Positions 57,314 through 59,458 of a stretch of DNA of 64,000 bases are shown piece by piece. Under the pieces are notes generated by a model. That model did not search any database. It was not told where the DNA came from and worked only from the letters and a program-made list of their open reading frames with translations. Position 1 is the stretch's first letter. Each line of letters opens with the position of its first letter. This DNA is from a virus (lineage: Duplodnaviria > Heunggongvirae > Uroviricota > Caudoviricetes): the IMG/VR virus record IMGVR_UViG_2740892427_000001. One strand, given 5' to 3'. The position numbers and the translations under genes were made by a program.

Positions 57314-57673
57314 TTAACTCTTCTTCATTAACTCGCGTTTAATTTCATCGGTACGCATCGTGACATCGGCAGCTGTGATCGCCTCGTTAAGTTTCACGAT
57401 ATCCTCGATTTCCTGCGGTGATTTCTCTGCCAAATGGAAAATAGCAGCACGAATCACATCAGAGCGGGTGAACTTCTCGAAACGAGGGATGAACTTCATC
57501 ATCTCCAGCAGTTCGAAGTATTCGTCTTCCAGTGACATTGTGCGGCTTTTAATTTTCTCTTTGCCACGAGTCGGGCGTCCCTGTGGTCTGACTGGTTGGC
57601 GCAAAGGAGTTGTGTTCTTAGCCGGTGCATCAGGCTCTTTGCGCTTTGCTAGGTCACCCATTTTCATGGACAT
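57314..57673 (-). CDS. small partition-system partner protein (ParG/ParB-like, possible ribbon-helix-helix)
   Basis: translationally coupled (ATG overlapping the parA stop); basic disordered N-terminus. Confidence 0.45.
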   Translation of the reverse strand: MSMKMGDLAKRKEPDAPAKNTTPLRQPVRPQGRPTRGKEKIKSRTMSLEDEYFELLEMMKFIPRFEKFTRSDVIRAAIFHLAEKSPQEIEDIVKLNEAITAADVTMRTDEIKRELMKKS

Positions 57674-58341
57674 TATTCTTCTTCCTCCAGACTCAACAGA
57701 TAATCTACAAATTCTTCAAACTCGGCTTCCGCCTTTTTGTCGCGCTCGCTACCGGTCATTTCAAAGATAGAACGACCAGACTCTTCCGCATCATCATAGA
57801 CGTTGCGGTTATATAGATTGACTGGCGCAGACTCGATTCCAAACGTCTCAACAATCTCTTTAGCCGCCAGAATGCGAGACACTTGTGATGGCAAAGCCGG
57901 GCACTGGTTCATGACCGCGCGGACCTTCACTTTATCGTTTACATTACGAACATTGTCGATAATAGGATCAATGTCACGCAGAGATTTCAAATCACGACGC
58001 TTAGGACGAAGCGGGATAATGATAACGTCGGCCATCAGCATCGCTTGTCGCTGAATTTCGGAGTCAAAGCCACCAGCATCTACCACTACATACTCAGCTC
58101 TACCCTGAAGCGATTTTAGGTGCTTAATGATGTCATCCTGAACGTATGCAAAAGGAATCAGCTCAAGGTCTTCGTTCTGTCGACGGTCTTCACACCAGCT
58201 TGTTGTCGTGCGCTGAATATCTATATCGGTAATATAAACCTTCTTCTTCTTTTTGACTTTCAGGCAAACGGCAATTTGCTGGGCAACGGTGGATTTGCCA
58301 GGCCCGCCCTTTGTGCCGCCAACCACAAAGATCTTGGTCAT
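57673..58341 (-). CDS. parA: ParA-type partition ATPase (small type Ib-like)
   Basis: deviant Walker A GGTKGGPGKST; 222 aa. Confidence 0.8.
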   Translation of the reverse strand: MTKIFVVGGTKGGPGKSTVAQQIAVCLKVKKKKKVYITDIDIQRTTTSWCEDRRQNEDLELIPFAYVQDDIIKHLKSLQGRAEYVVVDAGGFDSEIQRQAMLMADVIIIPLRPKRRDLKSLRDIDPIIDNVRNVNDKVKVRAVMNQCPALPSQVSRILAAKEIVETFGIESAPVNLYNRNVYDDAEESGRSIFEMTGSERDKKAEAEFEEFVDYLLSLEEEE

Positions 58342-58659
58342 TGGAGAGTTCCCTTTGCGTATATAATTATCGTCTGAAACAACTTGTTTTCTTATATGTG
58401 ATATAGCCTAAATGCCTACGGCTGCGGTGTAAAGGTTAAATGGTAGGTTGTGATTAACAATTGGCAATCATAGCTTGTATTTGTCTGTTGAAAAAAGTAA
58501 CAATGACCTCTATATTACAAGTACGGTGATATGCCGTACACAATTTGATAATGCACACGTAATGGGCTATAGCCTTTTAAAGTAATTTTTGAGTCGAAAA
58601 CTCAGTTTGAACAGAGGAGATTGATGGCCTTCCTACATCACGGCCATCAGGAGGAATAC

Positions 58660-58929
58660 ATGTCAGCACTAAAAAAGCAGCGCATCGATTTGAGATTAAC
58701 CGATGACGATAAAAGCATCATCGAGGAAGCTGCCGCAATGTCTAACCAGAGCATTACTCAGTTTATGGTTAGCAGTGCATCTGAACGTGCCGTGAAAGTT
58801 ATAGAGCAACACCGTAGACTAGTTCTGAATGAAGAATCCTGGAATCTGGTTATGGACGCTATAAGCAATCCTCCGGCACCGAACGACAAGCTGAAACGAG
58901 CTGCTGATCGTCTGAAAAGCATGGAGTAG
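58660..58929 (+). CDS. tacA: TacA-type antitoxin (DUF1778, ribbon-helix-helix)
   Basis: MDAISNPPAPNDKL matches the conserved NPPAPN motif; start set to ATG 58660 after AGGAGG. Confidence 0.8.
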   Translation: MSALKKQRIDLRLTDDDKSIIEEAAAMSNQSITQFMVSSASERAVKVIEQHRRLVLNEESWNLVMDAISNPPAPNDKLKRAADRLKSME

Positions 58930-58936
58930 TTTACTC

Positions 58937-59458
58937 GTGAGCAATACAACGATAGAGATTTTCTCTGGAGAGAAAGATTATGATCTAAACGGTTTTGATT
59001 GCGGCGAAGAGTCACTAAACGCCTTTTTAGCCAACCACTTAAAAAGGCAGCATGAGGGAAAAATTCTTCGTGCTTATGTGCTTTGCACTCAAGAAGAAAG
59101 GCCAAAAGTGTTAGGATATTACACTTTGTCAGGTAGTTGTTTTGAAAAGGAGTCCTTACCTTCAAGAAGCAAACAAAAGAAGGTTCCTTATCGGAATGTT
59201 CCAAGTGTTACTTTGGGTAGGCTGGCTTTGGACAAGTCCCTTCAAGGTCAAGGATTTGGCTCAATGCTTGTAACACATGCAATGCGCGTTGTGTACAATG
59301 CATCTCTTGCTGTAGGCATTCATGGACTTTTCGTTGAGGCGTTAAATGACAAAGCCAAGGCGTTTTATAAAAGTTTAGGCTTTATCCAGCTGGTTGGTAA
59401 CAACGAGCGTTCTTTGTTCTATCCTACAAAATCTATCGAAAAATTGTTCGAAGAATAA
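58937..59458 (+). CDS. tacT: GNAT-family acetyltransferase toxin (TacT-like)
   Basis: GNAT motif A LQGQGFGSMLV and C-terminal AFYKSLGF; immediately downstream of tacA; GTG start. Confidence 0.8.
   Translation: MSNTTIEIFSGEKDYDLNGFDCGEESLNAFLANHLKRQHEGKILRAYVLCTQEERPKVLGYYTLSGSCFEKESLPSRSKQKKVPYRNVPSVTLGRLALDKSLQGQGFGSMLVTHAMRVVYNASLAVGIHGLFVEALNDKAKAFYKSLGFIQLVGNNERSLFYPTKSIEKLFEE

Follow-up and report, generated by a model that had tools for sequence, protein, structure and literature searches.

Partition genes and a toxin–antitoxin cassette back to back on an SSU5-type phage-plasmid, probably as two independent modules

Does a partition gene pair that adjoins a toxin–antitoxin (TA) pair form a single maintenance unit with it, or do two independent modules share one locus? 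The question is raised by a stretch of 64,000 nucleotides of Caudoviricetes DNA (IMG/VR record IMGVR_UViG_2740892427_000001, hereafter the window), in which positions 57314–59458 hold four open reading frames (ORFs): parA and a small partner gene on the minus strand and, divergently from them, an antitoxin and a toxin gene on the plus strand. A reading made from the letters alone (the sequence-only reading) had taken the four for one plasmid-maintenance block. We think it probable that the locus consists of two independent modules placed back to back, namely a core partition operon and an autonomous addiction cassette of the AtaRT/KacAT type.

Limits and distribution of the two modules

The window is part of an Escherichia coli phage-plasmid of the SSU5 type and covers 64 kb of an element of ~108 kb. 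The region of the four ORFs is 99.2% identical to the phage Cyrano/pLF82 prophage-plasmid, which bears out the phage-like plasmid setting that had been proposed, and plasmid NZ_CP117972 covers 100% of it at 99.4% identity. All four ORFs were found where the sequence-only reading had placed them, with the parA–partner pair (parAB) and the TA pair divergent. Because a near-identical region is present in Cyrano and NZ_CP117972, we regard them as real genes and not chance ORFs.

The limits of the two modules emerge from the comparison with relatives that lack the TA pair (SSU5, PhiR41_1 and two Klebsiella phage-plasmids). Homology to these elements extends from the stop codon of the partner gene (57310–57321) to 58442–58451, and resumes at 59490–59499. 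Given these limits, parA, its partner and ~107 bp of upstream DNA make up a conserved island of 1.13 kb. The interval between (58449–59490, plus strand) is a variable cargo slot, occupied here by a 1,042-bp AtaRT/KacAT-type cassette with its predicted promoter and operator, its two genes and a likely terminator. The two modules also differ in distribution: par is found in ~730–770 plasmid records, against 145 with the TA cassette, almost all of the latter from Escherichia or Shigella (the cassette is 100% identical in pLF82). SSU5, PhiR41_1 and the Klebsiella relatives lack the TA pair; in SSU5, PhiR41_1 and pJN2-26 the slot holds unrelated, unannotated genes. The notion of one maintenance block thus gives way to a par operon that is core to the SSU5 family and a TA pair that travels as an autonomous cargo cassette.

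Other occupants of the slot include a resistance gene. In the SSU5-type plasmid pTIC (MF554642.1), positions 1501–2542 are the equivalent of 58449–59490, with the same span of 1,042 bp and the ends of the cassette kept. The middle has been replaced by aac(6')-Ib-cr, and a 114-nt ORF alone is annotated at the position of the antitoxin. The resistance gene has been placed exactly in the cargo slot that adjoins the par control region.

A second slot, on the other side of parAB, is variable too: it holds a lipoprotein-like gene here, a candidate defence gene (PDC-S31/DUF2971) in Cyrano and PD-T4-3 in PhiR41_1. The gene of the window (56598–57275, plus strand, 225 amino acids) lies between the partner gene and a 249-amino-acid gene, carries a MKANKSAALLVLLLAGC lipobox and belongs to phrog_1353, annotated as of unknown function; it matched nothing in Pfam or PADLOC. 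This slot looks like a defence/exclusion hotspot, and the lipoprotein could be a superinfection-exclusion factor. Further out, one flank of the locus is formed by this 249-amino-acid gene, a DnaB-like helicase and a primase, and the other by Rz1/Rz spanins, an endolysin, a holin and a tail fibre. In PLSDB, 679 plasmids match the region of the four ORFs, 646 of which are predicted to be non-mobilizable.

The partition operon and its control region

The gene parA (57673–58341, minus strand) encodes a small partition ATPase of 222 amino acids with a deviant Walker A motif, GGT-KGGPGKST, in which KGGPGKST starts at residue 11 (nt 58311). This is the sole such motif in the window, where no second ParA was found. 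The protein matches AAA_31 (6e-14), MipZ (3e-13) and CbiA above the Pfam thresholds, and phrog_164, a family of ParA-like partition proteins (2e-51). It is small and lacks an N-terminal DNA-binding domain, as in type Ib, and its nearest solved relatives are ParF/ParA of TP228 (4dzz and 5u1g, E=3e-10), of which 5u1g is the TP228 ParA entry from a study of ParA with its ParB effector (PMC5393062). The stop codon of parA and the start of the partner gene share one base (TAATG), so that the two are translationally coupled. The Walker A motif, the Pfam matches and the overlap therefore agree with the sequence-only reading, which had proposed a ParA-type ATPase coupled to a small partner gene.

The partner gene (57314–57673, minus strand) encodes 119 amino acids and is probably the centromere-binding adaptor of the system. 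Its family, phrog_5111, is unnamed, annotated as of unknown function and very small: a database of 5.8 billion proteins has 25 clusters of it, and 1.84 billion proteins include 18 representatives. The start is ambiguous between M1, M3 and M5, and RefSeq uses M3 in some relatives. In alignments of the family, an invariant MGDLAK(R/K) at the N terminus is followed by a variable linker, by a basic Pro/Arg-rich stretch, PxRxPxRPQGRPxRGK, and then by SRTMSxEDE...FTRSDVIRAAI. The two AlphaFold models of the partner, both of a single chain (pLDDT 64 and 70), have residues 1–47 disordered and four helices after them. A ribbon-helix-helix (RHH) fold is hinted at by sub-threshold matches of two distant family members to Pfam RHH_1 (E=0.0053 and 0.11) and by a weak match of the partner to NCBIfam aCcr1 (E=2.3e-4) over the same segment, which by eye resembles the canonical strand-helix-helix pattern of RHH proteins. 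The partner matched no Pfam family, fold searches with the monomer models returned no match, nothing was found among PDB sequences with the single sequence and two profiles, and the comparison with DUF1778 RHH by hhalign was negative (probability 0.05).

The published annotation of Cyrano reads this gene differently. It labels CYRAN_29, the equivalent gene (OV696614.1, 3994–4353), as 'RelE/ParE putative toxin' and counts it among the toxin morons (PMC9928086); were this right, the minus-strand pair would not be a partition operon. The partner has no match to RelE/ParE in Pfam, NCBIfam or PDB at any threshold, and its models, with a disordered tail and four helices but no beta-sheet, do not fit the alpha/beta fold of RelE/ParE. 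Its gene is coupled downstream of a ParA ATPase, has no antitoxin-like companion and is a persistent core gene of the SSU5 family, co-conserved with parA. The toxin label is unsupported by sequence or structure, and we give this alternative very little credence.

We then asked where the adaptor would bind. The sequence-only reading had suggested that the ~320-bp region upstream of parA may hold the centromere; the gap between the divergent pairs measures 279 bp to the TTG start of the antitoxin ORF as listed and 318 bp to its ATG at 58660. Part of this suggestion stands, as 58375–58446 is a par-associated candidate, to which the possible centromere is confined instead of being spread over 58342–58620; the remainder is taken up by the promoter, operator and leader of the TA cassette. 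The candidate is an ultra-conserved non-coding block of 72 bp (58375–58446, minus strand), which we take as the probable promoter/operator of parA and the best centromere candidate of the locus. In an alignment of five elements, whose parA genes are 77–99% identical, 92% of the columns of the block are invariant, compared with 35% of the third codon positions of parA and 89% of its first and second positions. In PLSDB, 728 plasmid records carry the block, each a single time (729 places), and no match falls below 90% identity; parA matches 774 records, 572 of them at less than 90% identity. The conservation of par stops at 58448. Since a terminator lies directly upstream of the block in SSU5 and PhiR41_1, the promoter of parA must be inside it. 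Two sigma-70 candidates for this promoter (58467/58440 and 58494/58467, each matching 9 of 12 consensus positions) fall for the most part outside the conserved block, within the variable junction and slot, and were rejected for that reason as the parA promoter of the family.

The block is composite. Its proximal part contains the palindrome AAACAAGTTGTTT (58377–58389, minus strand), preceded by ATAAGA, which is an element-wide control motif and not specific to par: with up to 2 mismatches on both strands it has 18 matches in the window against 3.6 expected, a number reached by 0 of 100 shuffles. Sites lie ~10–40 nt upstream of the minus-strand ATGs of the ORFs 5040–5609, 5907–6332, 15399–16541 and 28882–29307, of the helicase gene (54101–55441) and of parA, the respective copies of (A)AGAAAACAAnTTGTTT being at 5628–5640, 6357–6369, 16573–16585, 29324–29336, 55461–55473 and 58377–58389. 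Weaker copies were found at 44814 and 54046, and the motif also precedes the likely start of the primase; at least six other upstream regions carry it. It is kept upstream of both parA and the helicase gene in relatives of the SSU5 family. The motif probably serves as operator for an element-wide regulator or defines a special class of promoter; the putative repressor CYRAN_45 may be the factor that binds its sequence, AAACAAnTTGTTT. The distal part of the block (~58390–58446, ~50 bp) recurs nowhere else in the window and is equally invariant, and a 24-mer of the block, CCGTAGGCATTTAGGCTATATCAC, likewise occurs only once there. This distal part appears to be the best candidate for the operator and centromere bound by the adaptor; as it has no clear iterated repeats, we go no further than to call it a candidate.

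Several observations weigh against this view of the par system. Between 57200 and 58700, the search for iterated centromere repeats returned only short two-copy families, and the repeats read within the block are just CWTTTA (three times) and TAGGC (twice). The element-wide palindrome and the promoter function explain part of its conservation. ParA itself scores 115.5 bits against NCBIfam ParA_partition, under the cutoff of 180, and our literature search found no experiments on SSU5/pHCM2-type partition. One could propose that the block serves only as promoter and operator for element-wide control and that the phage-plasmid has its true centromere elsewhere. Such a proposal accommodates both the sharing of the proximal third of the block with at least six other upstream regions and its lack of obvious iterated repeats, and the window holds just 64 of the ~108 kb of the element. 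It accounts less well for the distal 50 bp, unique and as invariant as the rest, and for the presence of exactly one copy of the block per replicon in the 728 records. With homology ending at the stop codon of the partner gene, no conserved sequence is left beyond it, and the centromere/operator of type Ib systems usually lies directly upstream of parA, as in TP228 parH and pSM19035. We therefore hold a centromere elsewhere to be unlikely, at perhaps one chance in a handful, and keep the 72-bp block as the preferred site.

From the genes, homologies, boundaries, conservation and distribution that we observed, we infer the DNA binding of the adaptor and the identity of the centromere, as well as the role of the TA pair discussed below. 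The adaptor would dimerise through its helical C-terminal half, and the dimer would bind the 72-bp block, which would act as operator and centromere at once. Its flexible basic N-terminal tail (MGDLAK[R/K]) would then stimulate nucleoid-bound ParA-ATP, and the plasmid copies would thereby be spaced apart, as in ParF/ParG of TP228. Partition is probably co-regulated with replication by an element-wide factor, because the palindromic motif of parA is common to the helicase, the primase and other genes.

A bolder version of this scheme, to which we assign a small probability, is that phrog_5111 represents a new class of adaptor, whose fold would match no solved structure and be neither a ParG-type RHH nor a helix-turn-helix ParB, acting on a compact, non-repetitive, single-copy 72-bp centromere/operator fused to an element-wide palindromic control site. 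If this is true, partition in SSU5-type elements is wired into the regulatory circuit of the replication genes. In a weaker extension of the same idea, the partner might also bind the TA-leader palindrome that contains AGGCTATA, which would couple partition to addiction. The sequence AGGCTATA, common to the par block and the TA leader, has 3 matches against 1.2 expected, a number equalled in 12 of 100 shuffles; its sharing is probably due to chance.

The toxin–antitoxin cassette

The antitoxin gene (58660–58929, plus strand) encodes 89 amino acids and is an AtaR/KacA orthologue of the DUF1778/TacA1 family (Pfam PF08681, E=8.6e-26). The ORF as listed (58621–58929, plus strand) begins at an upstream TTG. 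The true start is most likely the ATG at 58660, since AGGAGG precedes it, it aligns with residue 1 of AtaR and KacA, and RefSeq gives the gene 270 nt in relatives; in a variant of the cassette, a 1-nt indel breaks the frame from the upstream ATG. The protein contains the NPPAPN motif that had been noticed, matches KacA (5zgn, 6.6e-42) and AtaR (6ajm, 1.3e-40) over its full length, with 80.5% and 76% identity, respectively, and conserves R8, D10 and R12, the residues by which KacA contacts DNA (PMC6698736).

The toxin gene follows after a gap of 7 nt, so that the antitoxin is immediately upstream. It runs from 58937 to 59458 on the plus strand, starts with GTG and encodes a GNAT protein of 173 amino acids, an AtaT/KacT orthologue of clade A. 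The protein has GNAT matches in Pfam, belongs to phrog_1758 (acetyltransferase) and is 69.4% identical to AtaT of O157. Its best PDB matches are AtaT (6gts, 1.4e-79, residues 1–172, 269 bits) and KacT (5zgn_C, 3.9e-75). The GNAT motif reported earlier is present as QGQGFG (residues 103–108), and AtaT has the same residues where this motif, G108 and Y144 align; from the AtaT/KacT literature we take the Q/R-x-x-G-x-G/A motif, G108 and Y144 to be the acetyl-CoA-binding and catalytic residues. The pair had been read as TacA/TacT. A divergent type II TA pair of DUF1778 and GNAT proteins is indeed what we found, but it belongs to the AtaRT/KacAT subgroup: the match to Salmonella TacT (5fvj) reaches only E=1.9e-11 and 47.7 bits, and TacA1 is here no more than the name of a Pfam family. 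The pair is a close, already annotated relative of AtaRT/KacAT and thus of a known kind; in Cyrano it is labelled 'KacT acetyltransferase-type toxin' plus antitoxin. In the LF82 lysogen both genes are transcribed morons, at 35 and 60 times the local background (PMC9928086).

The cassette carries its own predicted control elements. A sigma-70 promoter is predicted at 58488–58516 (plus strand), with -35 TTGAAA, a 17-nt spacer and -10 TATATT, matching 10 of 12 consensus positions. Both hexamers are invariant in a cassette variant of 90% identity and align with -35/-10-like hexamers of O157 ataRT and of pGF130-A. Directly after the -10, a predicted AtaR/KacA-type operator, GTACGG-N7-CCGTAC (58521–58539), spans the predicted start of transcription; it is unique in the window, against 0.04 expected. 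Its arms do not vary among three loci (the window, the chromosomal ataRT of O157:H7 and a third plasmid allele) whose nucleotide identity is only 66–68% and whose flanks have diverged, and in the 90%-identical variant the spacer varies and the arms are kept. The published mechanism of KacAT has a T-A2-A2-T heterohexamer bound to a pseudo-palindromic operator that straddles the start of transcription (PMC6698736). The predicted operator at the promoter, together with R8, D10 and R12 of the antitoxin, fits this mechanism as far as the sequence can tell.

Between operator and antitoxin lies a leader of ~120 nt (58541–58659), which is absent from chromosomal ataRT. It contains three palindromes: GGCTATAGCC (58565–58574), TGAGT-N5-ACTCA (~58588–58602) and TGATGGCC-N12-GGCCATCA (58622–58649), the last of which abuts the Shine-Dalgarno sequence. 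All three are intact in the 90%-identical variant, in which their flanks have changed. Folding of 153 nt of the TA leader gave no better result than its shuffles (z=-0.40), the variation among sequences is too small to show covariation, and an Rfam search of the region at E≤1 returned only noise. At the other end of the cassette, a G+C-rich hairpin, GTTCCCCTCAAATGAGGGGAAC (59462–59483), with a 9-bp stem of which 6 pairs are G-C, lies between the toxin stop codon and the convergent Rz1/Rz genes. It falls inside the variable slot and is likely the terminator that closes the cassette.

What would this cassette do? The sequence-only reading had named plasmid addiction and abortive infection as candidate roles. 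For clade A GNAT toxins such as AtaT and KacT, the targets of acetylation are glycyl- and hydrophobic aminoacyl-tRNAs, and elongation is blocked (PMC9177977). By close homology, the toxin of the window would have the same activity, acetylating the amino group of charged tRNAs and stopping translation. The antitoxin would neutralise it in a T-A2-A2-T heterohexamer, and the same complex would repress the operon at GTACGG-N7-CCGTAC. On this low-copy replicon, the most likely role of the cassette, by analogy, is addiction through post-segregational killing: the GNAT-type pair GmvAT is reported to promote the vertical transmission of pINV (PMC6519299). A chromosomal ataRT, of ~66% nucleotide identity to the cassette and placed between livJ and panM, is found in 1,626 E. 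coli chromosomes, or ~30% of complete genomes (for example NZ_CP017669.1, 883615–884415). Many hosts of the phage-plasmid may therefore have a related second antitoxin, with a potential for cross-talk or anti-addiction. Cross-neutralisation by the chromosomal antitoxin might weaken addiction, which is a point against the role that we favour.

The cassette could instead be mainly an anti-phage module acting by abortive infection, or serve competition between elements; in the former case, an infecting phage would deplete the labile antitoxin and the freed toxin would shut down translation. The cassette does sit in a variable cargo slot, the slot beyond parAB holds PD-T4-3 in PhiR41_1 and PDC-S31/DUF2971 in Cyrano, defence systems have been reported in SSU5-type phage-plasmids (bioRxiv 10.1101/2025.09.12.675607), and the lysogen transcribes the TA genes strongly, as 'morons' (PMC9928086). 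Against this, neither TA protein matches a PADLOC-DB 2.0 model at E≤0.001, our literature search found no phage defence by a GNAT/DUF1778 pair, the other occupants of the TA slot have no defence annotation, and the published precedent for a GNAT-type TA is plasmid maintenance (PMC6519299). A mainly defensive or competitive role therefore seems to us rather improbable, and addiction remains our preferred role for the cassette.

Significance and comparison with known systems

Phage-plasmids of the SSU5 type occur commonly in clinical E. coli, Shigella, Salmonella Typhi and Klebsiella: PLSDB alone has ~730–770 records of them, and resistance genes are found on some. To be inherited they rely on this par operon, a type Ib-like system. 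Neither its adaptor nor its centromere is characterised, and the adaptor is mis-annotated in a reference phage. Once this 72-bp site and its adaptor are defined, the incompatibility of these phage-plasmids, their curing and their stability would become more tractable. The two slots that flank parAB are entry sites for the accessory genes of the family, among them the TA pair, defence genes and aac(6')-Ib-cr. The rest of the region is largely ordinary; little is gained from the TA pair as such, since it is closely related to the well-studied AtaRT and KacAT and already annotated.

Among partition systems, the closest parallel is ParF-ParG-parH of TP228. Both have a small ParA without an N-terminal DNA-binding domain, and ParF is the nearest solved relative of ours. 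In both, the partner gene lies downstream and its small product combines a disordered N-terminal tail with a helical C-terminal part (in our case according to the models), and a candidate or known centromere/operator is directly upstream of parA. The differences are substantial. The partner has no detectable similarity to ParG in sequence or fold, has two extra C-terminal helices and is longer, with 119 amino acids against 76 in ParG. An array of tetramer boxes is lacking from the upstream block, and the relationship of the ParA to ParF is remote (E=3e-10).

Among TA systems, GmvA-GmvT of the Shigella virulence plasmid pINV can be likened to the cassette by description, being also of GNAT type and encoded on a large low-copy enterobacterial plasmid, although pINV is not a phage-plasmid. 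TacA-TacT of Salmonella Typhimurium shows the same pairing at the level of the superfamily, that of a DUF1778 RHH antitoxin and a GNAT aminoacyl-tRNA acetyltransferase, and the same Pfam family, TacA1. Its toxin is a distant relative only (5fvj, 1.9e-11, against ~1e-79 for AtaT) and is not the closest one. TacT-type toxins belong to other clades, with a narrow specificity for Gly-tRNA (PMC9177977), and the target range of the toxin of the window therefore probably differs from theirs.

The nearest systems are AtaR-AtaT of E. coli O157:H7 and KacA-KacT of Klebsiella pneumoniae. The homology to them is collinear and full-length, with the same gene order and 7-nt spacing, the same GTACGG-N7-CCGTAC operator after the -10, and with G108 and Y144 of AtaT and R8, D10 and R12 of KacA kept. 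The pair of the window differs from AtaRT in its setting, as it occupies a cargo slot of a phage-plasmid whereas ataRT is chromosomal, between livJ and panM. It also has a leader of ~120 nt with conserved palindromes where the O157 locus has none, and, at 66% nucleotide identity to chromosomal ataRT, it represents a distinct allele group.

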